DNA of 52,155 nt. Origin: a virus (Duplodnaviria > Caudoviricetes). A model generated the notes under the pieces. It had not been told where the DNA came from, did no database searches, and saw nothing but the letters and a program-made list of their open reading frames with translations. The stretch spans positions 1-52,155 of the IMG/VR virus record IMGVR_UViG_3300043411_001021; one strand, 5' to 3'. The stretch's first letter is position 1. Every line of letters begins with the position of its first letter. The position numbers were made by a program, and so were the translations under genes. Of the stretch, positions 2,887 to 34,259 are shown one piece after another.

Positions 2887-3939
2887 ATGATAGACATAAA
2901 TTTATACAATAAATACGTAGAAGATAAGTTAGTCACAAGACGCGAACATAACAACGGTGATTTACTAATTTGGAACTACACCCCCCGCACACAATTCTCT
3001 CGTGCTTGGGATGACGTGACAATGATGTGTCGAGGGTTAATTACTAATAGAGAAGGTGAAATCATTGCTCGACCTTTTAAGAAGTTTTTTAATTATGGAG
3101 AAGTGGGCGATAACATTCCCGAAGGTGGATTTTCAGTCACAGAGAAGTTAGATGGTTCTCTTTTTATATTAGCAAAACATAACAACGAGTACATCACAGC
3201 TACACGAGGGTCTTTTTATTCAGACCAAGCAAAAAAGGGTAGAGAGATTCTAGATAGATACGTACAAGAATATGGTAATTTATATTTAGAAGGTATCACA
3301 TATTTATTTGAAGTAATTTATCGTGAAAATAGAATTGTCGTAGATTACGGAGATGATGAGAAGTTAATATTAATTGCAGCAATCAACACTGAAACTGGTG
3401 AAGAGTTAGATATTAAAACTTGTCCACACCCTGATCGCGTTACATATCACGGGGATATGGAAACTTTTGAACATCTTATTGCTAATGCGGGGGCGGAAAG
3501 TAACCGTGAGGGGTTCGTTATCCGTTATTCAGATGGCACACGTCTTAAATTAAAGTTTGATGAGTATTGCAGACTACATAAAATCATAACAGGAGTTAAT
3601 AAGCACCGGATTTGGGAGATTTTAAAGGCTGAGGATAGTTTAGATGAGTTACTGGAACTTGTCCCAGATGAATTTTATAATTGGGTGAAAGAAACAGTAA
3701 ATTACTTTAAAAAAGAACACTATATGTTAAAACAGGAAGCACGCTCAGTATATGTATGTGTACAGGATCTCCCAACACGTAAAGAACAAGCACAAGAGAT
3801 CTTTAAAACAATACACATACCTGTGATACGTTCGTGTGTATTCCTACTTTTAGATAAACGTGATAACGAAGTTGACACAGCTATTTGGAAAGCATTAGAA
3901 CCTCACGGTGATGAAAGACCTTTTAAGGAGGAAGTATGA
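2887..3939 (+). CDS. T4 Rnl1-like RNA ligase
   Basis: CRGLI, ARPFKKFFN, EKLDGS (motif I), TRGSF, EGFV, LKLK. Confidence 0.93.
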   Translation: MIDINLYNKYVEDKLVTRREHNNGDLLIWNYTPRTQFSRAWDDVTMMCRGLITNREGEIIARPFKKFFNYGEVGDNIPEGGFSVTEKLDGSLFILAKHNNEYITATRGSFYSDQAKKGREILDRYVQEYGNLYLEGITYLFEVIYRENRIVVDYGDDEKLILIAAINTETGEELDIKTCPHPDRVTYHGDMETFEHLIANAGAESNREGFVIRYSDGTRLKLKFDEYCRLHKIITGVNKHRIWEILKAEDSLDELLELVPDEFYNWVKETVNYFKKEHYMLKQEARSVYVCVQDLPTRKEQAQEIFKTIHIPVIRSCVFLLLDKRDNEVDTAIWKALEPHGDERPFKEEV

Positions 3940-4289
3940 AAATTTTAGATCAAATTTCGGAATTATTTTCTTTAAAGATTAAAGAAATTGCAAAGCGTTC
4001 GGATGAAAGACATCTTGGTGATGGTTTTAATTTAGAAAGATTAGATCGTATCTTACAAAGAATTTATCTACATGATCGAATGAGTGATGGAGATTTTAAA
4101 GAGCTTCAGATGCTTGGGTTTCTTAAAGGTGCGCGTATAAAAGCAAAACCTTTTGAGGTAGGGCAGAAGGTGAAGTATTTTGATATAAACACTACTGTAA
4201 CAGGGGTTAAATATGTTCCTGAATTAAAGTGTTGGCACGTACAAAGTGTAGTAAATAGTAATTGGATACATGAGAGGTTTTACAAATGA
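3936..4289 (+). CDS. Hypothetical protein
   Basis: ATGA-coupled ORF with SD AGGAGG. Confidence 0.75.
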   Translation: MKILDQISELFSLKIKEIAKRSDERHLGDGFNLERLDRILQRIYLHDRMSDGDFKELQMLGFLKGARIKAKPFEVGQKVKYFDINTTVTGVKYVPELKCWHVQSVVNSNWIHERFYK

Positions 4290-4540
4290 TAATAGACTAT
4301 GTAGATTTCACACACATAGATACACCTTTTACGAGGAGACGTGAGTTAGATGTGGGAGATGTTTTTATCAATCAAGGACAATGTAAAGCGTGTGGTTGGG
4401 TCATAAGATCTAAAAACAGACATAACTATGTGACCTGTAATTGCGGAGAATGTAGTATAGATGGTGGAAGTTGGTATGTAAAATATAGTGGACCTTTGGG
4501 GTTACACACCGTTTATTATAATGATATAGAGGAAAAATAA
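4286..4540 (+). CDS. Zinc-ribbon hypothetical protein
   Basis: CKACG..IRS..RHNYVTCNCG...IDGG phage Zn motif. Confidence 0.75.
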   Translation: MIIDYVDFTHIDTPFTRRRELDVGDVFINQGQCKACGWVIRSKNRHNYVTCNCGECSIDGGSWYVKYSGPLGLHTVYYNDIEEK

Positions 4541-5400
4541 TGACAGGTAAATTAGTGATGATGCGTGGGCTGCCTGGTAGTGGAAAAAGTACTTATGCAA
4601 AGGAACTTGTAGGAAAAGGATTTGTTCGGATATGTAAAGATGACCTTCGTTCTATGATGAGCAACGGAGTCTGGAACGGTAAACGTGAGAAACGTGTAGT
4701 TCGTGTTCGTGATTTTATTATTCGTGACGTTTTGGAATCGGGCGGAAATGTTGTTGTAGATGACACTAATTATAATTGGGAAGATCATTTACGCGGGTTG
4801 GCTTCGGAGTACAGCGCTAAGTTTGAAGTGATAGATGTTGACACAGATGTTGACACATGTATTAAGCGTGATCTTGCGCGTGAAAACTCTGTTGGAGCTT
4901 CTGTTATTTGGAGGATGTATTACGAACACGTTTCTCCTCCTGAGAAATATGTCGCTCCAGAAGGATCAATGGAGGTTATATTATGTGATTTAGATGGAAC
5001 TCTAGCACTCATGAATGATGAGAATAATTCTCGTTCCCCTTATGATTGGGAGCGTGTAGGAGAAGATGCTGTTTGTCCTGCAGTTAGTTATATAGTACAC
5101 CAAATACAATCTGGTTATGAGTCTCGACCCGTGATACTTGTTAGTGGACGTGATGAAGTTTGTCGTAGTGAGACAGAAGCTTGGTTGGAAAAACATGATA
5201 TAGAATATAAAGCTTTGTTTATGCGTCCTGCTGGTGATAAGCGAAAAGACACAATTGTGAAGCGAGAAATATTTGACCGAGAGATTCGTGATAAGTATGC
5301 TGTGTTATTTGTCTTGGATGATAGAATTTCCGTGTGCCGTCAATGGTACGGAATGGGATTGCCTTTGCTTCGTGTTGGCGATCCGGATGCGGATTTCTAG
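4540..5400 (+). CDS. pseT: Polynucleotide 5'-kinase/3'-phosphatase (T4 PseT-like)
   Basis: GLPGSGKST P-loop; HAD DLDGTL, SGR, LFMR..GD.RKD..VK, DDR. Confidence 0.95.
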   Translation: MTGKLVMMRGLPGSGKSTYAKELVGKGFVRICKDDLRSMMSNGVWNGKREKRVVRVRDFIIRDVLESGGNVVVDDTNYNWEDHLRGLASEYSAKFEVIDVDTDVDTCIKRDLARENSVGASVIWRMYYEHVSPPEKYVAPEGSMEVILCDLDGTLALMNDENNSRSPYDWERVGEDAVCPAVSYIVHQIQSGYESRPVILVSGRDEVCRSETEAWLEKHDIEYKALFMRPAGDKRKDTIVKREIFDREIRDKYAVLFVLDDRISVCRQWYGMGLPLLRVGDPDADF

Positions 5401-20236: not shown

Positions 20237-20308
20237 ATCACTATAGGACAATGGTTAGTCCGCTTGGTTTTCATCCAGGAAATCAGAGTTCGATTCTCTG
20301 TAGTGATA
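20237..20308 (+). tRNA. tRNA-Glu(TTC)
   Basis: ATCACTA/TAGTGAT acceptor, CTTGG-TTTTCAT-CCAGG anticodon arm, GTTCGATT T-loop; followed by CTA, not CCA. Confidence 0.92.
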
Positions 20309-20458
20309 CTAGTGTGGTATAATATATACCCACGGTGAGAAACCTACGCCTTAAGTAAGTAGTTAGTATTGCCGTACTTTTTAAAAAAGAAAGGCTATAT
20401 CGTGAATACATACTCAAGCCCTTCCATCTGTTGTTACCCCTTGCCCAGTTATTAATAC

Positions 20459-20533
20459 GCACACTTGGTGAAGTGGTAACACAATGATCTGCAAAATCAT
20501 TATGCATCGGTTCGATTCCGATAGTGTGCTCCA
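20459..20533 (+). tRNA. tRNA-Cys(GCA)
   Basis: GCACACT/AGTGTGC acceptor, ATGAT-CTGCAAA-ATCAT anticodon arm, encoded CCA. Confidence 0.93.
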
Positions 20534-20607
20534 CTGGATATAGCTCAATTTGGTAGAGTACTCGGTTTGGAACCGAGGGGTTGTAAGTTCAAATCTTGCT
20601 ATCCAGA
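20534..20607 (+). tRNA. tRNA-Pro(TGG)
   Basis: CTGGATA/TATCCAG acceptor, CTCGG-TTTGGAA-CCGAG anticodon arm, GTTCAAAT T-loop; followed by CTA. Confidence 0.93.
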
Positions 20608-20649
20608 CTAAAACTTTCTTTAATATAAAAAATAAACTATACTTATTAT

Positions 20650-21339
20650 GTGAATAGTCCTAAAATTGTAGTGTCCACAGGGTGGCGTTTTGAACCTGAA
20701 TATATGTTGGAAGATTGGAAAACCAACACCTCATGGTTCGATGGGCAGATTATTTATGATGATAGAGAGCGTGATTCTGCGGATCGTTGGATAGATGAGT
20801 CATTTTTATATACTGAATTGAGAAGAATGGCTTTAGAGCAAGGTGCGGACTGGATAGCTCATATTTCAATAGATGAACGCCTTGACCTTAATGCAGAAAC
20901 AATAATTCGTGAGAGAATAAATTATTTAAAAAGAACTACTTTACGACTACCTGTAAAAGAACTTTACACACCTACATCATATAGAGACAATAAAGGTTTT
21001 TGGCAACATGAAGAATCTCGGATATATCCATTATTAGAAGATAATGTCTATAGTGATGTACCTTTCCATAACCCAATTGCGCCCTTAAGAGAACATGACC
21101 GTTTCATGCAATTGATGTCTATCCCTGTGAATATTTACCACCAAAAAATGATTGAACCATCTAGCAGAGAGAATCGTGTTAAAATATATAATGAAGTTGA
21201 CCCAACTGCTTCTCTCACAGTGCTAAATGAATATGAGTATTTAACCAACGAAGACAATATTATTTTAAAAGAAATTGAAAAACCATACGGATATATTCCA
21301 CCTTATAGGACATTTAAATACGAGACAGGGACACAATAA
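20650..21339 (+). CDS. Glycosyltransferase-like protein (GT-A / GT2-like)
   Basis: IIYDD, GADWIAHISIDERL (variant of ADWxxxxDxDE); sugar-gene context. Confidence 0.65.
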   Translation: MNSPKIVVSTGWRFEPEYMLEDWKTNTSWFDGQIIYDDRERDSADRWIDESFLYTELRRMALEQGADWIAHISIDERLDLNAETIIRERINYLKRTTLRLPVKELYTPTSYRDNKGFWQHEESRIYPLLEDNVYSDVPFHNPIAPLREHDRFMQLMSIPVNIYHQKMIEPSSRENRVKIYNEVDPTASLTVLNEYEYLTNEDNIILKEIEKPYGYIPPYRTFKYETGTQ

Positions 21340-21340
21340 A

Positions 21341-22027
21341 TTGAAAGATTTAAACGATCAAATTTCAAACTACACAGACTTTAACTCATGGCTTATTAAA
21401 AAACGATATGAGCATCTCTCTAGATATTTTAGAGGAGATACTTGCTTAGAAATGGGATGTGCAGATGGTTCTGGTACTGTTATCTTAAATAATTATTTTA
21501 AAGATTTAACAACAGTAGATGGAAGCTCTACTGCAATATATGAAGTTGGTAAACTGCTTCCTAAGATTAAAAGACATTTCTCAAGTTATGAAACAATGAA
21601 ATTTAACACTAAGTTTGACACAATTGTTCTGGCGCATGTGTTAGAACATGTTGATAACCCACAAACTGTCTTAAAAAAAGCTAAAGAACATCTTGCACCT
21701 GGTGGAGTTTTAATTGTCGATGTTCCTAATGCAGATAGTCTACATAGACAGGCTGGTGTTGAACTACATTTATTAGATCGTATAACAGATTTAAATGAAA
21801 CAGATATCTCAATAGGACATAAACGAGTTTATACGCAACACACTTTTTATGATGAGCTTCGTGAATTGAACATGATTATCTCTACCTTCGGGGGTATGTT
21901 TATAAAAGTAGTTTCAAATAAACAAACTGAAGAATTATTTAGTGAAGAACAACTAGATGCTTTTTTTCAAGTAGGTGTTAATAATCCACACGTAGCTGCT
22001 GAAATCTACGGAGTCTTAGAAAAATGA
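21341..22027 (+). CDS. Class I SAM-dependent methyltransferase
   Basis: LEMGCADG, VDGS, FDTIVLAHVLEHV, LAPGGVLIVDVPN; TTG start assumed (track start 21275). Confidence 0.9.
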   Translation: MKDLNDQISNYTDFNSWLIKKRYEHLSRYFRGDTCLEMGCADGSGTVILNNYFKDLTTVDGSSTAIYEVGKLLPKIKRHFSSYETMKFNTKFDTIVLAHVLEHVDNPQTVLKKAKEHLAPGGVLIVDVPNADSLHRQAGVELHLLDRITDLNETDISIGHKRVYTQHTFYDELRELNMIISTFGGMFIKVVSNKQTEELFSEEQLDAFFQVGVNNPHVAAEIYGVLEK

Positions 22028-22212
22028 AAATAGTCGCAGCATTTTCTAAAAGATACGAACCAGAATATCTTGTTGATGAACTTCGAGAAAATTTAGCGTG
22101 GTGTGATGATATTATTGTTCGTAATCCATCACTTGACTGGATACCAGTAGGTGCAGACTATTATATAAATTCTTTAGAAGAACTCCCAGAACTATTAGAA
22201 AGTATAAAATGA
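22024..22212 (+). pseudogene. Chimeric remnant: GT N-terminus fused to a HAD-like C-terminus
   Basis: First ~32 aa parallel the N-terminus of 20650..21339; ends GADYYINSLEELPELL. Confidence 0.55.
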
Positions 22213-23273
22213 TACCAATACATCGTTGCGTAGTTTCAGACTACTCAAAAAAATTAGTAAACGAAGTTTTAGATTCCGGAAATCTTGTACAAGGTAAAAT
22301 GGTAAAGCGTTTTGAAGAAGAGTTTGCGGAGATTAGTGGGGCAAAATATGCAGCAGCGACATCTAACGGAACAACTTCTTTAGAAATGATGATGCGTGCA
22401 GATGGTGTTGATGAGGATTATGTTGTATTTACAAATCCACTATCTTTTGCAGCAACACCTCGTGCAATTAGACATGTTGGGGCTACTCCAATTTTTATTG
22501 ATGTAGAGTATGAAACAGGAAATATTGACCAAGTAAAATTACATCAAGAAAATGATAGTCTGAGGTCTCATTCAAAAACTAGCACACTAGTTGTAGATTT
22601 ACACGGGGTACAAGATCCATTAGTTACAAATAATATTCCAATATATAGAGATGCATCACAAGCACACGAATCTAAGTTAGACACTGATAGTGTTGCAGCT
22701 TCATATTCTTTTCACGCTTCAAAAAACATAACCGCTGGTGAAGGCGGTATGGTTGTATCTAATGATTTTAATTTGATAGAAGATATAAAATTACTTAGAA
22801 ATCATGGTATGAACTCATACGGTACCTTTAAATCTATAGATGGTTATAATGCACGTATGACTGACTTACAAGCAGCAATAGGTATAGGAAGTTTACGAAA
22901 TCTTTCAGAAATTAATGCAATACGTACTGATAATGCTCGGTATTATGATCAATCATTTTCCGGTATTGATAGCTTGAAGCTACCTGTGACACAGTATATT
23001 TATCACCATTATTGTTTAAGATCTCCATTTGCAGACCAAATAATAACCATACTTAGATATGAAGGCATCGACACGCGAAAGTATTACTCTAAACCTCTCA
23101 CAGAATTGCCAGAATATGAAGGTTACGAATTATCTAATCGTGCCACGTTTCCTAATGCTTATATGGTGTGTGAAGAATCATTCTGTATTCCAGTACATCA
23201 ACACTTGACAAAACAAGAAAAAGATTACATAGTAAAAAAGGTTATACAAGCAGTGGAGCATGTGAATGGATAA
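22209..23273 (+). CDS. DegT/DnrJ/EryC1/StrS sugar aminotransferase
   Basis: SNGTTSL, DASQAH, YSFHASKNITAGEGG (PLP lysine), GYNARMTDLQAAIG. Confidence 0.95.
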   Translation: MIPIHRCVVSDYSKKLVNEVLDSGNLVQGKMVKRFEEEFAEISGAKYAAATSNGTTSLEMMMRADGVDEDYVVFTNPLSFAATPRAIRHVGATPIFIDVEYETGNIDQVKLHQENDSLRSHSKTSTLVVDLHGVQDPLVTNNIPIYRDASQAHESKLDTDSVAASYSFHASKNITAGEGGMVVSNDFNLIEDIKLLRNHGMNSYGTFKSIDGYNARMTDLQAAIGIGSLRNLSEINAIRTDNARYYDQSFSGIDSLKLPVTQYIYHHYCLRSPFADQIITILRYEGIDTRKYYSKPLTELPEYEGYELSNRATFPNAYMVCEESFCIPVHQHLTKQEKDYIVKKVIQAVEHVNG

Positions 23274-24084
23274 TAATAATATATGGGTTATAGGTGCGTC
23301 AGGCTCGATGGGATCAAAGCATTTAGCTAAACTTGAAAAAAGGACTGATGGTGTCAAAGCATGGGGCTGGGATATTGCAAATAAAGGCGGAGCAAGTAGT
23401 TATAAAGATTTAATTCATACAAAAATTAATAACTTCATAATAGTAACACCCTCAAATACACACTATGAAATAGCTAAGTATTATATTGAGCATGGAAAAA
23501 ACCTATTGATTGAAAAACCAATTTCTTTAAATTACAAAGAAGCACAAACGCTTTACAGGCTTAGTCGCGAATATAATACTGTTTTAATGACTGGGCACAA
23601 TTACGGGTTCAACCCTGATTTTAGACGAGCTTTACCTGAACTGTATCACGCAAAAACTTTAGTGTTTGGTATGCATTTACCACATGATAATATTGTAGAG
23701 AATGTAGTGTTTGACCTGGGAATACATCAATTTGAACTAGCTTTTAAGTTAGGTCAAAGAGAGTTTGATCGAGATTTTAAACTGAAAGAAGTACGTATAA
23801 AACCAGGAACACAAAATGTCTACGTACATGCCCAAATAGGATCTAAAAATTGTCATTTTAATATGAGTTATAGAGGAGGTAATGACCATAGAACGCTACA
23901 CTATGACCATACAGGTGAAGTAGATTTCCACGATGCAGACGGTAAATCCCCCGACGCAATGGAAAACCTTCATAATGCTTTTATCAAGGCTTGCGAAGTA
24001 GGAATTTGGCAGTCTCACTATTCGGAAAACGCAGTTGCTGCTGTGCAGTTAGCTGAGATGGTTCAAAATAAACTTTTTAGATAA
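23266..24084 (+). CDS. Gfo/Idh/MocA-family oxidoreductase
   Basis: VIGASGSMG, TP..THY, IEKP, GHNYGFNP, DLGIH. Confidence 0.88.
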   Translation: MDNNNIWVIGASGSMGSKHLAKLEKRTDGVKAWGWDIANKGGASSYKDLIHTKINNFIIVTPSNTHYEIAKYYIEHGKNLLIEKPISLNYKEAQTLYRLSREYNTVLMTGHNYGFNPDFRRALPELYHAKTLVFGMHLPHDNIVENVVFDLGIHQFELAFKLGQREFDRDFKLKEVRIKPGTQNVYVHAQIGSKNCHFNMSYRGGNDHRTLHYDHTGEVDFHDADGKSPDAMENLHNAFIKACEVGIWQSHYSENAVAAVQLAEMVQNKLFR

Positions 24085-24110: not shown

Positions 24111-24431
24111 ATGGCAATAGAAAACAACTTCATCAAAGATGAATTAGACAACCCAGCAGGCGGAACATCAAAAGATATTGGTGTTGATATAAGTTGGCAA
24201 AATGGTCCAATAGCTGGTCCAGATGATAGAAACGGTGCTTTTGTAATTGATGTAATTCAAATTGCAATTGACCGCATTAACTTTTACAATGAAAGCCAAT
24301 TTCGATGCAGAGAAAACTCTCTAGCAGTAACTAAGTTAGAAGAAGCTATACATTGGTTAGAGTCTCGTAGAGGTCGAAGAGCTGGTGAAGGAATATTAGG
24401 TACACACAAAGTAGATAAAACTGAAGGATAA
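24111..24431 (+). CDS. tad1: Tad1-family cyclic-nucleotide sponge (anti-Thoeris/anti-CBASS)
   Basis: WQNGP...NG...IDRI.FYN...FRCRENSLAVTKLEEAIHWL..R...R..EG.LGTH matches the Tad1 pattern as recalled. Confidence 0.8.
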   Translation: MAIENNFIKDELDNPAGGTSKDIGVDISWQNGPIAGPDDRNGAFVIDVIQIAIDRINFYNESQFRCRENSLAVTKLEEAIHWLESRRGRRAGEGILGTHKVDKTEG

Positions 24432-25157: not shown

Positions 25158-25430
25158 ATGTTTAACCCAGTTGGAGAGAGAATACTTGTAAGAGATATTG
25201 AGGACGATGAGAGACAAACATCTACTGGGATATATATAGCGGGTAATGAAGAACACAGCGCTCCTAAGAAGGCAGAAGTGATAGGTATTGGAAATACTAA
25301 AGAGCGAGATTTAGGTATTACTATTGGAGATATTGTTATGTTTCCAAGATACTCAGGAACGGACGTTACAATTGAGGGTGAAGATCTTATCCTCGTAGAT
25401 TATGATAACGTATTAGTAAAAGTTATTTAA
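25158..25430 (+). CDS. groES: Co-chaperonin GroES
   Basis: PVGERILVR, TSTGIYI, GDIVMFPRYSGTDVTIEGED. Confidence 0.92.
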   Translation: MFNPVGERILVRDIEDDERQTSTGIYIAGNEEHSAPKKAEVIGIGNTKERDLGITIGDIVMFPRYSGTDVTIEGEDLILVDYDNVLVKVI

Positions 25431-26208: not shown

Positions 26209-26502
26209 CTATATCACACTTATAATATTACTGATTATATTATCTGCTGACGTATTACCTATAAACCTTTTAACCTCTGTATCATCTTGCATGATAATTA
26301 TTGTAGGTATACTTAGGATTCCGAATTTAGAATTTAGATCTTTATTTTCATCTACATTGATTTTATAAAAATTGATATCAGGTAACACTCTAGAAGCTTC
26401 CTCTAAAGCGGGTACAACAGTTTTACAAGGCCCACACCAAGGTGCCCAAAAATCAAGTATATATATACCTTCTAAATTATCAACATTACTAATTTCTTGC
26501 AT
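26209..26502 (-). CDS. trxA: Thioredoxin
   Basis: DFWAPWCGPCK, SIPT. Confidence 0.95.
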   Translation of the reverse strand: MQEISNVDNLEGIYILDFWAPWCGPCKTVVPALEEASRVLPDINFYKINVDENKDLNSKFGILSIPTIIIMQDDTEVKRFIGNTSADNIISNIISVI

Positions 26503-26600: not shown

Positions 26601-26888
26601 ATGATAAAAACATACACATATACAAAAAAGCAAGCGTCCGAGCTACTAAATATTAGTCCTGCAAAAGTTGACGTACTAGCTAAGAAAGGCATCCTAACCA
26701 GAGTACGTAAAAATACTAATAATGATAGATCAGCATGGCTTTATAGTGCTGAGGAGCTTGGGATGATGCTTGCGAACAACAAAAAAGATGAAGAAGTGGT
26801 AGTCCCTGCTCCAACAGTGAGTAACGTTTCTGAAATCAGACCTGCCACATCAAAAGCTAAAAACCCATTTTGGAAATTTTGGAAATAA
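26601..26888 (+). CDS. HTH (excisionase/MerR-like) DNA-binding protein with amphipathic tail
   Basis: YTKKQASELLNIS...AKKGIL; C-terminal PFWKFWK. Confidence 0.75.
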   Translation: MIKTYTYTKKQASELLNISPAKVDVLAKKGILTRVRKNTNNDRSAWLYSAEELGMMLANNKKDEEVVVPAPTVSNVSEIRPATSKAKNPFWKFWK

Positions 26889-27769: not shown

Positions 27770-28083
27770 AAAATGTTGTACAGCAATTTCACGATTTTAC
27801 AGATTTAAACGAATATACAAATAATCAGGTCGGATTCATCCAGAAAGAAAATGAAGACGTGTGGTACTTTGCACGTAAAGAGGTATCACCTACACTCATA
27901 CTTATTCTTAATCTAGTTATACATAAAGACGACTCGTACTCAATTGTGCTTGAGAATTATATAAAAAAGCAAGATGTTGGGTGGGAATCACACTCTATGA
28001 GACTAAATACCCCAAATAACGTATCTAAAAAGTTTGTTCTTAAAGATTTAATTTTAAAATGGAACCATAAATTAACCATTTAA
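27763..28083 (+). CDS. Hypothetical protein
   Basis: Overlapping start/stop. Confidence 0.7.
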   Translation: MLENVVQQFHDFTDLNEYTNNQVGFIQKENEDVWYFARKEVSPTLILILNLVIHKDDSYSIVLENYIKKQDVGWESHSMRLNTPNNVSKKFVLKDLILKWNHKLTI

Positions 28084-28122
28084 GGTGTTCTACCAGGTAT
28101 TTTATAAAATAATTTTTTGTTC

Positions 28123-28151
28123 TTGACATTGAATTTTCCTTATTGTATGAT
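28123..28151 (+). promoter_or_regulatory. Sigma70-type promoter
   Basis: TTGACA-17 nt-TATGAT. Confidence 0.8.
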
Positions 28152-28204
28152 ATGAATAACACACAAGAAATGTGTGCCAACATAGAAAAGGACAAAGGAC
28201 AACA

Positions 28205-28600
28205 ATGAACGAAGATAAAGAAAAACTACGACTAGATCGTAATCTAATTAAAAAAGAAAAAAAGCCTAGTAAATTTAAAAAGTTTGCAGGTAGTAGTGTG
28301 ATTAATTACATGTTACTGGGGGCGATACTTGTAGCAGTTACCTATGCATTTGGATACCACCAAGGCTCTAAATTACCTGAACCAACACCTGCTAATTCTA
28401 TTTGTAGAAAATTTGCTACAGAAGTGCCACTTTACTATAAAGCACAAACTGGAGCTATCTTTGGGGAAAAACCACCAACAGGTAGTTTAAATAAAGAACA
28501 ATTAGATGCTTTAGCTAAAGACTGCGATGAAAACATTAATGTTTATACCTATATCAACCCTACCGAAACAGTTCCGACAACTAAGGTGGTGAAGAAATAA
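28205..28600 (+). CDS. Single-pass membrane protein
   Basis: Basic N-terminus, TM YMLLGAILVAVTYAFGY; ATG 28205 with SD AAGGA. Confidence 0.7.
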   Translation: MNEDKEKLRLDRNLIKKEKKPSKFKKFAGSSVINYMLLGAILVAVTYAFGYHQGSKLPEPTPANSICRKFATEVPLYYKAQTGAIFGEKPPTGSLNKEQLDALAKDCDENINVYTYINPTETVPTTKVVKK

Positions 28601-28698
28601 TGCGCGTTTTAAAAAGAGACCATAAATTCACCGACGGATGGTTACCTATCGCAGTAGCCTCAATAACATTTTGTTACTTCCTGTCAAAGTTAGGGTAG
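28600..28698 (+). CDS. Small membrane peptide (32 aa)
   Basis: MRVLKRDHKFTDGWLPIAVASITFCYFLSKLG*; TAATG coupling. Confidence 0.5.
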   Translation: MRVLKRDHKFTDGWLPIAVASITFCYFLSKLG

Positions 28699-28700
28699 TG

Positions 28701-29315
28701 ATGTTTACTAAATTATTATATATAGGAACTGTTGGTTTATTCTCTGTTTTGGGATTTAACATCTCTGGATCAGACACACAACCTTCCATGTTAAGTAGTC
28801 CTGCACAAGCTGCTCCAACGGAAGATACAATAGAAACAATCCCAGCTGTAGTAGAAACATCTTTTCATAGAGGATTTACAAACTTACAAGCTCAACCTTG
28901 TCGTAATGACCACACTCGTGAGTATTACGAGAGTGATCTAATAAGTAAAGATGAAACAGCACATGTACTTATATCAATAGGTGCTACTACTGGACAAGCG
29001 GATATTCTAAGTGCTATTGCACGAGCTGAGTCCGCAAATCAAAATAATTGTTTTGGCGATGATTCGTCCGAGTATTATGGTAAACCTACAAATAATGGAA
29101 AACATTGGGGTCCATCGTATGGAAATTTTCAAATAAGAACAATATTAGAGGAATCTAATACAGGTACTTGTAGGGATATTGAACGGTTACGACTCAACCT
29201 TGTTGAGCAGTCTAAATGTGCCATGGAACTATCAAATGGTGGAACTAAATTTTCACCTACTTGGTCAACATACACTAATGGAAAATATAAAAAATGGCTA
29301 GGGAAAACCTGGTAA
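28701..29315 (+). CDS. Exported lytic transglycosylase (SLT/lysozyme-like)
   Basis: Signal peptide; AIARAES (catalytic Glu), SYGNFQI, SNGG.KFSPTWSTY..GKY. Confidence 0.8.
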   Translation: MFTKLLYIGTVGLFSVLGFNISGSDTQPSMLSSPAQAAPTEDTIETIPAVVETSFHRGFTNLQAQPCRNDHTREYYESDLISKDETAHVLISIGATTGQADILSAIARAESANQNNCFGDDSSEYYGKPTNNGKHWGPSYGNFQIRTILEESNTGTCRDIERLRLNLVEQSKCAMELSNGGTKFSPTWSTYTNGKYKKWLGKTW

Positions 29316-29325
29316 GAAGGAAAAA

Positions 29326-29718
29326 ATGAAAAAATACATAACAAGACAGAACATAGTAAGAGTTGTATTATTATTATTAGCAATAGTAATAATATCCACT
29401 CTATCAGTACAGAAAAGCAATGCTAATGAGCAGGCTAATAAATCAAAAGAAGAAGTTGAAAGTGTTCGTAGATCAGTGAGCGCTAAAGATTCACGTATAA
29501 GCGATTGTGTCGAAGTTATGGACGCATCTATTGCGGCAAATGCTTACTACATACTTTCAGACATGACACTAAGAGAGGCTCTACTAAAAGCAATTAATGG
29601 TGATGTTAGCACTTTAACTGCGGATATTAGAACAGCTAATGGCCATAGAGACACAGCGCAGATAGAATCAGATAAATACACTCTATCACAAGTTAATATG
29701 TGTAGAGATGGTAAATAG
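29326..29718 (+). CDS. Membrane-anchored/exported helical protein
   Basis: N-terminal hydrophobic segment followed by a coiled region. Confidence 0.7.
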   Translation: MKKYITRQNIVRVVLLLLAIVIISTLSVQKSNANEQANKSKEEVESVRRSVSAKDSRISDCVEVMDASIAANAYYILSDMTLREALLKAINGDVSTLTADIRTANGHRDTAQIESDKYTLSQVNMCRDGK

Positions 29719-29829
29719 CTACTGACAGCTTTCGCAGCTCTCTGGATTCTCTAGGGAGCAAGCTGTTTTTTCATCTACAATGATTTCTTCCTCATCAGCA
29801 AAAAATGCTTCTAGATCATCGTTACCCAT
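29719..29829 (-). CDS. 36-aa acidic microprotein ending ACSLENPESCESCQ
   Basis: Manual translation; overlaps the holin stop; resembles ribonucleotide reductase alpha C-terminal CxxC tails. Confidence 0.65.
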   Translation of the reverse strand: MGNDDLEAFFADEEEIIVDEKTACSLENPESCESCQ

Positions 29830-30082
29830 TTATTTTAAAACCAATATTCTTAAGACGATCTAAGATAGAAGGTTTTCCTTCTAATTTATTAATATTCAAT
29901 GTCTGTACTCTAACATTCTTTATGAATGATAATACAGCAGCAGCTCCGCCAATTACTACAACTTTTAATGTAGAAATATCTGTGTAATTAAACCCAGATG
30001 CAATTAATAACGCAATACCAGCTTGCCAGAATGTGCTTAAAGCACGCTTTCCAATTTCTTGCCAATTATAAACTTTAATCAT
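29822..30082 (-). CDS. Holin (r1t-like)
   Basis: W..IGKRALSTFWQAGIA..., two TM segments, near the endolysin. Confidence 0.75.
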   Translation of the reverse strand: MIKVYNWQEIGKRALSTFWQAGIALLIASGFNYTDISTLKVVVIGGAAAVLSFIKNVRVQTLNINKLEGKPSILDRLKNIGFKING

Positions 30083-30245
30083 TTACTTTAACTCCTTTTA
30101 AAACTTTTTTCTTTACAGGCGGTCTATTAATAATATTATCTAAATACCATTTATTATATTCTTCTTCGGTTTTTTCAGTAGCATCTTTTGGCATATCAGT
30201 TTCACATGTGCCCCAGTGATTAGGTGTTAATGAATAATAAATCAT
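30075..30245 (-). CDS. Small hypothetical protein (tail-fibre associated?)
   Basis: TAATG-coupled start MIYYSL...; EKTEEEY motif. Confidence 0.55.
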   Translation of the reverse strand: MIYYSLTPNHWGTCETDMPKDATEKTEEEYNKWYLDNIINRPPVKKKVLKGVKVND

Positions 30246-30916
30246 TAAACGACCTCGGCAATAAAAGCAGCAAGTACTTGTACAGAGCAAGCTGCTGAGT
30301 AATAAGTAGGTTGTAATCCAGGACCTGTATACCAGTATTGCCTGGCCTGAAAGGTATAAGTTGAGCCAATAGGTACTTCTATAAAATTAGTTATAGACTT
30401 ACCCTGTTGAAAAGTCATATTACCTTCATCATACGTAGAAGCTTTATCCGTATCTGATACAGTATAACTTCCGTTTACACCTGTTTGCATATGTACAGTA
30501 TTAGAACTACCATTACCGTTATCACCATAGAGTTGATAGTCCCAGCTAAAAGAATATCTAACGACAGCGACCATAGGATATATAGTCGAAGGGTTTGAAA
30601 AAGATAAATTAGAAGTCGTAGCATAAGGACCATAGGACCCGTTAGGAGCTGCTGGTTGATTTATAGTAACTGCACCAGTGACCGCACCAGTAGCTGCGCG
30701 TCTCTGCGGATTAACTTTTGAACCAAGTTCACCAGCAGTTGTCATAAACAATCCGTTGTTTTTAGGAGCAGCAGCGATACCTGTTGTATTACCAGCTATC
30801 ACTAATTTTAAACCATTAACACCACAAGTAGTACCACCTAGTGGATCACTTACAATTGTCATATTACCGGAACCTTCATCCCAACCAATACAATTTCCTA
30901 CACAATAACCGGACAT
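30245..30916 (-). CDS. Minor tail/virion protein
   Basis: Gly/Thr-rich beta protein with Cys N-terminus; tail context. Confidence 0.55.
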   Translation of the reverse strand: MSGYCVGNCIGWDEGSGNMTIVSDPLGGTTCGVNGLKLVIAGNTTGIAAAPKNNGLFMTTAGELGSKVNPQRRAATGAVTGAVTINQPAAPNGSYGPYATTSNLSFSNPSTIYPMVAVVRYSFSWDYQLYGDNGNGSSNTVHMQTGVNGSYTVSDTDKASTYDEGNMTFQQGKSITNFIEVPIGSTYTFQARQYWYTGPGLQPTYYSAACSVQVLAAFIAEVV

Positions 30917-31918
30917 TTATCCCCCAAAAATCGCTGACCAAGTAATTTTACCAACTACTCCGTCAATTGTAAGATGCTTAAATTGTTGAAAATCTCTAAT
31001 AGCTTGTTCTGTTTTACCACCAAAATCTCCATCAACAGCAATATTCATACCACCATCTTTAAGTTTTTGTTGAACTAATTTAACAATGTCTCCTCTAGAT
31101 CCTTTTTTCAATAGTCCAGGATAATTAGGAATAGCTGTAGGTGTTGGCGCTGGTGCGCTAGGTGTAGAATCTCTAAATAATGTATTCCAAGTATTTTTAC
31201 CCACAATACCATCTTTGGTGAGTCCTTTTAACTCCTGAAAAGCTTTAACTGTATTTTCAGTTTCTACTCCAAAATCTCCATCCGCTTTAATACCGAGTTT
31301 GACCTGTAACTGTATTACATAGCCTCCCTTTGCTCCTCGCTTTAAAAGCATAGGATATGCAGGATAATCTTTAACAGGCGCTACAGGAGCACTAGGAACG
31401 ACTACAACAGGCGCTGGTTGATCTCCAGTGATATATTCTTTAGCATTTGCGTAAATACTAGCAATTTGAGCTTTTAAGTTAGTTCCACAACAAGCTGTCG
31501 CATAAACTTCACTATGACTACGTAGTGTAAATGTTGGAGTCACGTTACCTTGTTCTACAAAAGATTCAATAACACGAGCAATTGACTCTAATGCTTCTGG
31601 TGTAGGTATTTCCCCAACATAATTACCAATTAAGGCAATTCCTAAACTTACAGCATTTTGACCTTTAGTATGTGCACCAAGAGCTGGTACTGATCCTTTA
31701 TAACGACCTTGTAATACATCACCATTTGGATGTACCATAATTGTGTAAGGGACATCAATATAAGAACTATAACTGGTCACACGACGTGCATCTGCACTTG
31801 AATCATCTGTTACTGATGTAACAGTGTGGTGTAAGTAAATTGTACTTACAGGTAAATTCATAGATTGGAGTTGAGCCAAAGGTGCTCTCGCTCCCCAAGT
31901 TTCTTTATCTTTATACAT
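30917..31918 (-). CDS. Endolysin: N-acetylmuramoyl-L-alanine amidase + 2 PG-binding domains
   Basis: WGAR, LHHT, GAHTKGQN, HSEV.ATACCG; two DGDFG..TE...FQ...L..DG.VG..TW repeats; start at MYKDK (track start 31957). Confidence 0.92.
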   Translation of the reverse strand: MYKDKETWGARAPLAQLQSMNLPVSTIYLHHTVTSVTDDSSADARRVTSYSSYIDVPYTIMVHPNGDVLQGRYKGSVPALGAHTKGQNAVSLGIALIGNYVGEIPTPEALESIARVIESFVEQGNVTPTFTLRSHSEVYATACCGTNLKAQIASIYANAKEYITGDQPAPVVVVPSAPVAPVKDYPAYPMLLKRGAKGGYVIQLQVKLGIKADGDFGVETENTVKAFQELKGLTKDGIVGKNTWNTLFRDSTPSAPAPTPTAIPNYPGLLKKGSRGDIVKLVQQKLKDGGMNIAVDGDFGGKTEQAIRDFQQFKHLTIDGVVGKITWSAIFGG

Positions 31919-31997
31919 AAAATCCTTCATTTTGAGAGTTATGTACCATTTTACCACTTTTTAAGATGTTATGGGTGTTAATTAGGATTGTTTTTAT

Positions 31998-34259
31998 TTA
32001 ATTATAAATAAGTATGGATGATGAGTTATAGTAACAATTTTTACCAGAATCATTTATTGTCCAAGAATTGTCAGTTATTATACTTGTACGTGCAGCTTCA
32101 CTTGTGCAGTATACACTTCTACCAGCATCAAATGTAACAGATGGTTGTAAAGTTAATGCACTCCAACCAGTAAGTGTTGCGTCATAGTTAGCTCTAGATA
32201 ATCCAGCTGCTGGATCTCCTTCTGCAGTCACCCCTCCAAACATACTACTCATATCCGTTACATTACTAACATCCCAATTATCTAATGGTTGATCAAATAC
32301 CAAACAATTTGAGAATAGATAAGACATATTTGTTATATTACTAACATCCCAATTATCTAATGGTTGATCAAATGATTTTGCATAAGTGAATGTAAGATCC
32401 ATATTTAATAGACTACTAGTATCCCAACTATTTAATGGTTGATTAAATAGTAATGCATAAAGAAACATACTACTCATATCCGTTACATTACTAACATCCC
32501 AATTATCTAATGGTTGATTGAATGTAAATGTAAATGTAAACATACTACTCATATCCGTTACATTACTAGTATCCCAACTATTTAATGGTTGGTTAAAGCC
32601 AAACGCCTGTTCAAACATATGTGACATGTCAGTTACATTACTAGTATTCCAACTATCTATGGATTGGTTAAGTGATCTAGCATCTGTGAACATGTATGAC
32701 ATATCTGTTACGTTCGATAAGTCCGGTTGATCTTGCGCAATTATAGATAAATTTCTACACCCATTAAATGCCCCATGCATAGATGTCCACGCAATATCCC
32801 CCCAATTATATATTGCTACTACTTTAAGGGCATCTTTATAAAATGTCTCACCGTCAAAAAATATTCTAGGGAAATCTCCAGTTATTTTTATAACATAGTA
32901 ACCACTATAAGTATAGAAATGTGTAGCATCACCTGTTACGGATGTACTCGTATTACCATCCCCCCAATCAACATCATAATCATATCCAGTACCTGTTGTT
33001 GGAATCGTAAATTGCATTGCTAAAGAGTCCGCAGGGACAGTTGTTTTTACCAGCATTACAAATTCGTCTGGGGTAAAAGTAACATTCTCAAAAGGTTTAA
33101 TATACTCAACTACAGCCCATAAAGAAGATACTTCAATATAACTCTCCTCTTCATCAGGATTAGAAACTGAAACACCTATAAATAAAGTATCCTTTAAAGC
33201 AATATTGGTTACAGGTGCAGATGTCACACCTAACGACATACGTGTGTGTGCAAAATTAGTATACCCGTTATAACTATCACCATTAGTTGTCCAATCATCA
33301 TTGTTTATGTTAAAGAAGGGGGGGCCTGTATAAGAAATTGGCCCCATAGCTACTCCCACTGCTGGGTAGTATGTGGGTGGAATTTCTATATTGGACCTCC
33401 AACGCACAGACACTTGTCCGTATGTTAATATACTTAAAGTATCTAATTCCATATTATCTAATTTAAAAAATTCAGCAGATCCAGATAATGTAGCTGCTAT
33501 ATATGTATTATCATCGGGAGGATTATTATTTAGTAGCATAAAAGTAGAATCATTTATTGGAGCCCTATCAGGGCCAACAACAAATCTATTAGCATTACCT
33601 AGAAATGTATAATCACTAAAAGATGTAGGAAATAAATATTCAACAATACCTTCACCAGGATACCCACCATCAACACCATCAACATACGTACCCTCATTAA
33701 TAGCTAAATCATCAAAATACCACACGCCATTAACTTGAGCTTCATTATTTAAATTACCACCAACAATGTAATAAGTACAGGTAGAGCTTAGACTACGAGT
33801 AGAGCTAGTAGCAATTACGACCCCATCGACCATTAACTCGACGGTATCAGATCCAGCACCTACCTTATTAACATGTAATTCAATACGATACCATATATCA
33901 CTAGATAATATAGTTGTGCCAGAGATTTGACCATCTTCGTCATATAGCTTTAAAACTCCAGTATTGTCAATTGTTGCGTACGCTAGGTCTGCATTAACGC
34001 TTATAAACCTATTCTCAGCAGAAGGGAATGTCCCAAAGTTAACGTAACTACGAAAATACATAGTATCTGCAACAAGTGATGAAGGTAAAACACTCTTGAA
34101 CCCTTGTAAGACACCAGATTCAAGTGATGATATTTTACCAGAGTATTTCCCAGATCTTACTGTTATCGGGGATATTGAAGCATTACTATAAACATTTGTG
34201 AATTCAACACCATCGTCTGTTGTATTTATTTCAAATCCGAAGGTTTGAACTCTAGACAT
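31998..34259 (-). CDS. Virion/adhesin-like protein with lectin-like N-terminus, PKD-like segment and BspA/DUF285 repeats
   Basis: WYRIEL...FDDLAIN, VDWGDG, repeated FNQPLxxWDxSNVTDMSxMF. Confidence 0.8.
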   Translation of the reverse strand: MSRVQTFGFEINTTDDGVEFTNVYSNASISPITVRSGKYSGKISSLESGVLQGFKSVLPSSLVADTMYFRSYVNFGTFPSAENRFISVNADLAYATIDNTGVLKLYDEDGQISGTTILSSDIWYRIELHVNKVGAGSDTVELMVDGVVIATSSTRSLSSTCTYYIVGGNLNNEAQVNGVWYFDDLAINEGTYVDGVDGGYPGEGIVEYLFPTSFSDYTFLGNANRFVVGPDRAPINDSTFMLLNNNPPDDNTYIAATLSGSAEFFKLDNMELDTLSILTYGQVSVRWRSNIEIPPTYYPAVGVAMGPISYTGPPFFNINNDDWTTNGDSYNGYTNFAHTRMSLGVTSAPVTNIALKDTLFIGVSVSNPDEEESYIEVSSLWAVVEYIKPFENVTFTPDEFVMLVKTTVPADSLAMQFTIPTTGTGYDYDVDWGDGNTSTSVTGDATHFYTYSGYYVIKITGDFPRIFFDGETFYKDALKVVAIYNWGDIAWTSMHGAFNGCRNLSIIAQDQPDLSNVTDMSYMFTDARSLNQSIDSWNTSNVTDMSHMFEQAFGFNQPLNSWDTSNVTDMSSMFTFTFTFNQPLDNWDVSNVTDMSSMFLYALLFNQPLNSWDTSSLLNMDLTFTYAKSFDQPLDNWDVSNITNMSYLFSNCLVFDQPLDNWDVSNVTDMSSMFGGVTAEGDPAAGLSRANYDATLTGWSALTLQPSVTFDAGRSVYCTSEAARTSIITDNSWTINDSGKNCYYNSSSILIYN
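32238..32720 (-). repeat. 75-bp (25-aa) tandem DUF285-type repeats
   Basis: About 6 units; 32238-32293 is identical to 32463-32518. Confidence 0.9.

Follow-up and report, generated by a model that had tools for sequence, protein, structure and literature searches.

In a class I ribonucleotide reductase, each turnover leaves a catalytic disulfide in the active site; the C-terminal tail of the large subunit (R1) then moves in and reduces it again. Of the steps of turnover, this reduction of the active site by the tail is the hardest to see, since structures show the tail as disordered. Yeast Sml1 is reported to block the regeneration of R1, and does so by competing with the R1 C-terminal tail. 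Also, R2 C-terminal peptides (herpesvirus or mammalian) inhibit reductases by competing for the docking site on R1.

It is established that thioredoxin or glutaredoxin reduces the CxxC of the disordered R1 tail, and that this CxxC then reduces the active-site disulfide (PMC4078304, PMC9669993); two parallel electron routes were found to raise reductase activity up to 3-fold (PMC4078304). In split reductases, parts of the large subunit are separate polypeptides that cooperate; examples are NrdJa/NrdJb from Pseudomonas aeruginosa (PMC9669993, PMC4520616) and NrdA-a/NrdA-b from Aeromonas phage Aeh1 (PMC3045599). Finally, Sml1 and Hug1 are small disordered proteins that act on reductase subunits, and Hug1 binds Rnr2 (PMC4245953).

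We analyzed a stretch of 52,155 nucleotides from a virus of the Caudoviricetes (IMG/VR record IMGVR_UViG_3300043411_001021), which we will call the window. It contains a microgene of 36 codons. Judged by its sequence, the product copies the C-terminal redox tail of class I R1 as a free-standing peptide (Table 1). What is new is a known R1 tail, detached, in phages that show no reductase; the nearest published cases are the split reductases and the small disordered regulators. In a full-text search of the literature, we found no account of a class I R1 tail that stands alone, whether in phages or in other organisms.

The last 13–17 residues of the product are the same as in the R1/NrdA tail (the clade with ..ACSLENPESCE[AS]CQ, and yeast Rnr1), including the terminal CxxC, the upstream cysteine, and ENPE. 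In contrast to that tail, they belong to a separate 36-residue product, encoded in a phage lysis operon, that has a start codon of its own and adds a new, acidic N-terminal part. The split reductases consist of large pieces that are encoded side by side, while the microgene frees only the last 20–30 residues and has no reductase nearby. Sml1 and Hug1 are cellular checkpoint targets and not tail copies, and they have no sequence relation to the peptide (which matches no Pfam family). The R2-derived inhibitors are also short acidic copies of a reductase subunit's tail and act in trans, as we suppose the microgene product would, but the microgene copies the tail of R1, not of R2.

Table 1. Features in and around the microgene (positions in the window).
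Feature	Position	Strand	Description
Microgene	29719..29829	minus	36 aa + stop codon; predicted stand-alone copy of class I R1 C-terminal redox tail
Codons 2-23 of microgene	29761..29826	minus	acidic aromatic N-terminal part + DE-x-x-A linker, GNDDLEAFFADEEEIIVDEKTA
Codons 24-36 of microgene	29722..29760	minus	R1-type tail, terminal CxxC + upstream Cys, CSLENPESCESCQ
Overlap of microgene start and holin stop	29822..29829	minus	8 nt, ATGGGTAA
Terminator-like hairpin	29725..29771	plus	intrinsic-terminator-like hairpin + U-run, within the tail-coding half of the microgene
Holin	29822..30082	minus	upstream gene of the same operon; PF16945, 30.2 bits (cut-off 26.9); phrog_443
Endolysin	30917..31957	minus	amidase_2 + PG_binding_1
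Phage thioredoxin	26209..26502	minus	WCGPC; PF00085, 83.5 bits

The microgene and its setting

The microgene translates as MGNDDLEAFFADEEEIIVDEKTACSLENPESCESCQ, with TAG as the stop codon. This is exactly the peptide in the original prediction, which had also noticed that the ORF runs over the holin stop. The ATG is at 29829-29827 and an in-frame TAA lies immediately 5' of it, so the 36 codons are the full length of the ORF and no extension is possible. The same TAA rules out a frameshift fusion of the microgene with the holin. The holin stop falls 5 nt past the microgene's ATG, within the overlap, which probably reflects translational coupling. We found no Shine-Dalgarno-like run 5' of the ATG. 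At its other end, the stop of the microgene abuts the stop of a convergent gene (29326..29718), with no intergenic bases.

The peptide is very acidic (4 Asp, 8 Glu, and 1 Lys) and has three cysteines and many carboxylates. Its C-terminal 13–17 residues are ..DEKTACSLENPESCESCQ and its C-terminal tryptic stretch is TACSLENPESCESCQ. Elsewhere in the window, phage tRNA genes for Glu(UUC), Cys(GCA), and Pro(UGG) stand in tandem at 20237-20608. Glu and Cys are the microprotein's richest residues; their match to this set of tRNAs is probably a coincidence.

There are 55 ORFs of at least 25 codons within 6 kb around the microgene, and a 36-codon ORF is by itself not beyond chance. We take the microgene to be a real gene because its relatives conserve it (see below). 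Gene callers overlook it: it is too short for the ORF cut-offs in common use, and neither Pfam nor PHROG has a family for it.

The microgene ends a block of minus-strand genes that runs from ~51.5 kb down to 29.7 kb. This block encodes a head-tail adaptor, the major tail protein, the tape measure, and minor tail proteins, and then a DUF285 protein, the amidase endolysin, an unknown gene, and the holin. Given this gene order, the microgene is the last gene of a late tail and lysis operon. The window's WCGPC thioredoxin, which is 3.2 kb from the microgene, is a possible reductant of the peptide. The R1 barrel (PF02867) is absent from the window, which covers 36% of the estimated genome.

A blastn search with positions 28000-32000 found no match among 50,697 GenBank phages. 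We also found no relatives of the window's holin in viral contigs, and relatives of its DNA polymerase in one 13.6-kb contig only. The polymerase is 35-38% identical to actinophage polymerases. Along with the genes for an Rpf-like transglycosylase (PF06737; 19534-20067), a Cpn10/GroES homologue (25158-25430), and a DUF6397/HTH protein (26601-26888), this hints at an actinobacterial host, despite the G+C content of ~35%. Some other genes in the window deserve mention. A T4-type RNA ligase and a polynucleotide kinase-phosphatase, with one 117-aa ORF between them (2887-5400), look like a pair for tRNA repair. At 21275-24084, consecutive genes for a methyltransferase, a DegT/DnrJ aminotransferase, and a GFO/IDH/MocA oxidoreductase might form a sugar-modification module. 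And 24111-24431 has a sub-threshold match to the Acb2/Tad1 hairpin domain of anti-defence sponge proteins (22.6 bits versus a cut-off of 27).

The plus strand of the tail-coding half resembles an intrinsic terminator. A terminator scan reported a 10-pair stem followed by a T-run; it found 3 sites versus 0.4 expected. The fold of the plus strand is a 17-pair interrupted hairpin followed by six U, with an energy of -21.1 kcal/mol (z -4.6; not equalled by any of 200 shuffles); the minus strand of this region gave -13.1 (z -1.9). The codon pairs ACA-GCT and AGC-TGT make up the outer stem of the hairpin. The hairpin probably ends the convergent plus-strand operon, and a terminator inside the microgene accounts for the absence of intergenic space at the convergent stops.

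Identity with class I R1 tails

The original prediction likened the peptide to the redox tail of a class I or class II reductase alpha subunit. The resemblance is real, and it is to class I: the last 13-17 residues equal the tail of R1 proteins of that class, and we saw no class II reductase among the matches. In the PDB, the only sequence matches of the peptide are to yeast Rnr1, specifically to its last 21 residues (866-886 of 888; PDB 1ZYZ and others). The match to this tail had an E value of 0.77 with the single sequence and 0.11 with a profile of five homologues.

We searched for the word LENPESCE in bacterial contigs (one genome per species), which gave at least 590 confirmed stretches, and analyzed the best 80 loci. 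In 79 of these 80, the protein ends with ..ACSLENPESCE[AS]CQ* in an open frame of 667-1089 codons; the remaining one (L092) has a frame of 260 codons, in which the end of the R1 core is still present. No stand-alone form of the tail was found among these best 80 of the 590 or more loci. The bacteria with the motif, among the best 80, include Streptomyces, Micromonospora, Lysobacter, Stenotrophomonas, Planctomycetes, Bdellovibrionales, Elusimicrobiota, and Dehalococcoidia. Among the best 80 loci from metagenomes, 57 encode full R1, 19 encode R1 that is truncated by the end of the contig, 3 have broken R1 frames, and 1 (L111) is stand-alone.

The R1 proteins with the motif combine an ATP-cone, an all-alpha domain, and a barrel, and their tail is outside the barrel model, past its end. 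Their genes are followed by R2 genes, whose products end with ..V[SD][FL]D[DE][DE]F. In low-G+C contigs (35-36%), R1 ends with ..DDEALACSLENPESCESCQ and ..SDEALACSLENPESCESCQ.

Codons 24-36 of the microgene are the same as, or one residue off, the ends of full-length R1 proteins. The identity extends over 14 residues (the A-C-S-L-E-N-P-E-S-C-E-[AS]-C-Q motif) for the R1 proteins of L037, L042, L060, L084, and L112. The CxxC pair falls in the last 5 residues (..CESCQ*), and full-length R1 and all 17 of the stand-alone peptides that we aligned have the same ending.

The occurrence of the motif across these loci indicates that it is specific to R1 and to small tail ORFs. All of the R1 genes that we found with this type of tail, in the bacterial, viral, and metagenome loci examined, carry the tail fused. 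The microgene's tail, in contrast, is not attached to an R1 barrel: a TAA precedes the ATG, and PF02867 is absent from the window and from 10/10 related records.

The stand-alone family and its conservation

The original prediction expected stand-alone homologues, and these exist. Among 1.84 billion representative proteins, we found three of 35-40 aa that are 73-78% identical to the peptide (P0001-P0003; E values of 1.9e-8 to 5.6e-6). A word-based search using the 40-aa homologue P0002 gave an additional stand-alone member of 44 aa, P0005. The word ENPESCE had 83 matching stretches in IMG/VR viral contigs, with 66 confirmed loci. Full-length R1 accounts for only 12 of them; the other 54 are small ORFs, 39-106 codons long when measured between stops, and always end three residues after ENPESCE. 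(In an earlier viral scan, 18/29 loci were small ORFs and 11/29 were full-length R1.)

The family includes several subfamilies, which differ in their N-terminal parts. They share an aromatic residue in an acidic run, a short hydrophobic stretch, and C-x-[LV]-E-N-P-E-S-C-E-S-C-[QE]. All three cysteines and the CxxC are invariant in 17/17 aligned stand-alone peptides, and so are 9 of the 13 tail positions.

We considered mimicry of the R2 tail by the N-terminal part and rejected it. A PSSM was built from 72 R2 C-terminal 9-mers and scored against the N-terminal parts of the 17 peptides, with shuffled controls. The peptide of the window had p = 0.14, the best p was 0.088, and none of the 17 peptides had p < 0.05. 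By this score, these N-terminal parts have no stretch resembling the G-x-V-x-[FL]-D-[DE]-[DE]-F of R2.

No Pfam or PHROG family matched the microgene's peptide, and no Pfam family matched six other members of the family. A tblastn search of the peptide against the 50,697 GenBank phages, with the low-complexity filter on, gave no match at E <= 10. We also looked for longer proteins that share the peptide's words. None of the 11 candidates reached E <= 10, but this says little, as E values in a database of 5.8 billion sequences are too harsh for a 13-residue match. The clusters of the ESM Atlas that come closest consist of small proteins without names, including a 46-aa cluster recorded as viral; their scores of 0.90-0.91 are a lead only.

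The stand-alone relative from the metagenomes, L111, is a close one. It has the same 8-nt overlap of start and stop (TTGCCTGA), with a different upstream gene, and an AAAGGGG run before the TTG. The same contig encodes, at 1578-1874 on the minus strand, a homologue of the convergent gene that abuts the microgene in the window, with a 341-aa gene inserted between this homologue and the microgene. Another protein, P0006 (43 aa, from a 526-base contig), matches P0002 over 24 residues bar one I-to-V change, and diverges exactly where the R1-type tail is expected to start (..IVIDE/CERIPKNVWEDIFPIITNE). Recombination, an insertion, or a chimeric assembly could each explain this protein.

Strong purifying selection acts on the tail. 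For the 13 tail codons of 20 stand-alone ORFs (14 distinct nucleotide versions), pN/pS was 0.11 (pS 0.96 and pN 0.11), and serine codons switch between AGY and TCN. Within subfamily B, pN/pS was 0.33 over the whole ORF (N-terminal part, 0.37; tail, 0.18).

Four further runs, each from a different study of activated sludge, wastewater, or aquatic metagenomes, have contigs with a relative that is 7-10% diverged in the microgene stretch. One run that might have been RNA is probably DNA, and the metatranscriptome runs contained at most 0.10 of the words searched. Within the ORF, the relative has 11 base changes and no indels. Six of these changes are synonymous (codons 3, 6, 12, 20, 26, and 32), and the amino-acid changes are three: G2E and D4S, both in the overlap with the holin, and K21Q. 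The tail from C24 to Q36 is unchanged, with 2 synonymous and 0 non-synonymous changes there. The holin stop has moved by 3 nt, with the overlap retained. The relative's U-run is broken (29769 T>G and 29770 T>C), and another change turns a G-U pair of the hairpin into G-C. Because the U-run was lost while the peptide tail was kept, coding is a stronger constraint than the hairpin.

The similarity of these contigs to the window ends at 30084, just upstream of the holin start, so the holin and the microgene travel together. Between strains, the holin is far more diverged than the microgene, with 21 changes listed for 29840-29903 (of the holin region 29840-30084). The holin also has compensating +1/-1 indels at 29857 and 29861.

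The phages that carry the small ORF span 35-66% G+C, and the ORF is not tied to lysis genes in all of them. In 28 of the 54 viral loci it is flanked directly by the small terminase gene on one side and the large one on the other; in L001 it is beside an integrase, and in L029 it is upstream of the large terminase gene. These ORFs are at the borders of modules and never adjoin nucleotide-metabolism genes in the loci examined. Within the group with a terminase-adjacent small ORF, the large terminase is split into two consecutive ORFs, one for the ATPase part and one for the nuclease part (L021 4093-5660 and L017 6269-7823).

R1 (PF02867) is absent from all ten of the other records with the small ORF, one of which is estimated to be 92% complete. 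Also, no contig with both R1 and a separate tail ORF was found among the viral motif loci; each locus is from a different contig. Since the carriers are without R1, the target is probably a host enzyme. R2 and thioredoxin were each absent from 5/5 of the other small-ORF records tested. The original prediction had paired the peptide with the phage's thioredoxin; the window does encode one nearby, but it is no general companion of the family.

Possible roles of a detached tail

We propose, with about equal room for being right and wrong, that the microgene is a translated phage gene for a disordered, acidic copy of the R1 tail that acts in trans, most likely as a diffusible dithiol shuttle on the host's R1. 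We infer the translation, the binding to R1 and thioredoxin, and the direction of the effect. The free peptide would meet the tail's two partners in trans, namely a thioredoxin-type reductase (the host's, or the window's own) and the active site of R1. The R1 acted on would most likely be the host's, because the phages with such peptides show no R1 of their own. While the enzyme's own tail is away recharging, R1 could be re-reduced by a second route through the peptide, so that a pool of pre-reduced free tails would form a parallel electron route. This second route would raise dNTP output, at a cost of ~40 codons.

Several observations bear on this proposal. The residues of the tail are fixed alike from Actinomycetota to Planctomycetota, and in phages across the whole range of G+C content, which suggests a constrained interface, most plausibly with the active-site region of R1, which is equally conserved. 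The invariant CxxC and third cysteine fit a redox role better than mere blocking, and the thioredoxin in the window fits the direction of a shuttle. We also predicted the complex of the R1 core (residues 1-756 of L002) with the peptide; the scores of 0.30, 0.36, and 0.29, versus a mark of 0.32, are not evidence either way.

Other considerations point away from a shuttle. The microgene is at the end of a late operon, and about half of the other small ORFs (28/54) are beside terminase genes, which seems late for boosting DNA precursors. Being tethered, the enzyme's own tail is already locally concentrated, which makes it uncertain how much a free tail would add. As for the target, the host's R1 may not bear this tail, and the phage may have an R1 of its own, as the window is only part of the genome.

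More generally, many uncultivated phages without a reductase may carry a ~40-residue mimic of the host's R1 tail to control host dNTP synthesis, by either speeding or throttling it. We put this forward tentatively. It would give such phages very cheap access to the host's supply of DNA precursors, which was recently linked to the triggering of anti-phage defences. If this is true, then no smaller auxiliary metabolic gene is known, and the peptide would be a natural probe of the step in reductase turnover that is understood least. That a peptide of little more than the tail is conserved suggests that the tail can work, or interfere, as a separate molecule, and the peptide would be a ready reagent for studying this step. 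The throttling variant, if true, would let the phage stay below dNTP-sensing defences such as DRT2, DRT4, and DRT9.

Instead of a shuttle, the free tail might be a competitive decoy or inhibitor. It would occupy the active site of R1 or the surface where the tail docks, or trap R1 in a mixed disulfide, and throttle host dNTP synthesis in the manner of Sml1, which is reported to block the regeneration of R1 (PMC6382339, citing Zhang 2007). A decoy might serve for late shut-off, for superinfection exclusion, or for staying below defences that sense raised dNTP. A preprint reports that DRT2, DRT4, and DRT9 are triggered by dNTP rises from phage NrdAB (bioRxiv 10.64898/2026.10.27.754916), so a phage could gain from damping the reductase. 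The location of the gene in late operons fits shut-off better than a boost, and the extra acidic aromatic N-terminal part, which is under selection, could add affinity. However, a pure blocker would not need the strict retention of the CxxC and the third cysteine (17/17 peptides), phages without their own reductase depend on the host's supply of dNTP, and the thioredoxin in the window fits electron delivery. Going by the sequences, we consider the shuttle to be more likely than the decoy, which is possible but somewhat unlikely.

A split phage reductase seems doubtful. In this scenario, a tail-less R1 is encoded in the remaining 64% of the genome, and the microgene supplies its tail in trans. 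The incompleteness of the window leaves room for such an R1, the thioredoxin would suit it, and split enzymes are known (NrdJa/NrdJb and the Aeh1 NrdA-a/NrdA-b, cited above). But R1 was found in 0/10 of the other small-ORF records, including the 92% complete genome, and the separate tail ORF did not share a contig with R1 at any of the viral loci. Also, the microgene is in a lysis operon instead of beside nucleotide-metabolism genes, and every R1 that we found with this type of tail has it fused.

It is quite improbable that the product has nothing to do with the reductase and is some other thiol or metal peptide, such as a redox regulator of the holin or endolysin, a helper for virion disulfides, or a metal binder. 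The coupling to the holin in the window, the three cysteines, and the many carboxylates would suit such a peptide, and the original prediction itself offered metal binding and action on Cys-rich virion proteins. Both seem to fit poorly with a tail that is fixed exactly as in R1. That 13 residues are the same as in R1 tails, in phages of such different G+C content, points to R1's partners instead, and in other phages the gene is away from the lysis genes (between the terminase genes or beside the integrase).

Least credible of all is that the microgene is not a gene but a frame that happens to be open across the plus-strand terminator hairpin, or what is left of a decaying R1 gene: the strong opposite-strand hairpin with its U-run, the many short ORFs of the region, and the lack of a Shine-Dalgarno-like run would suit this, but the frame, the start, and the peptide are retained in homologues that differ in nucleotide sequence and in neighbouring genes, pN/pS is 0.11-0.33, and the diverged strain has an intact peptide tail despite its broken U-run.
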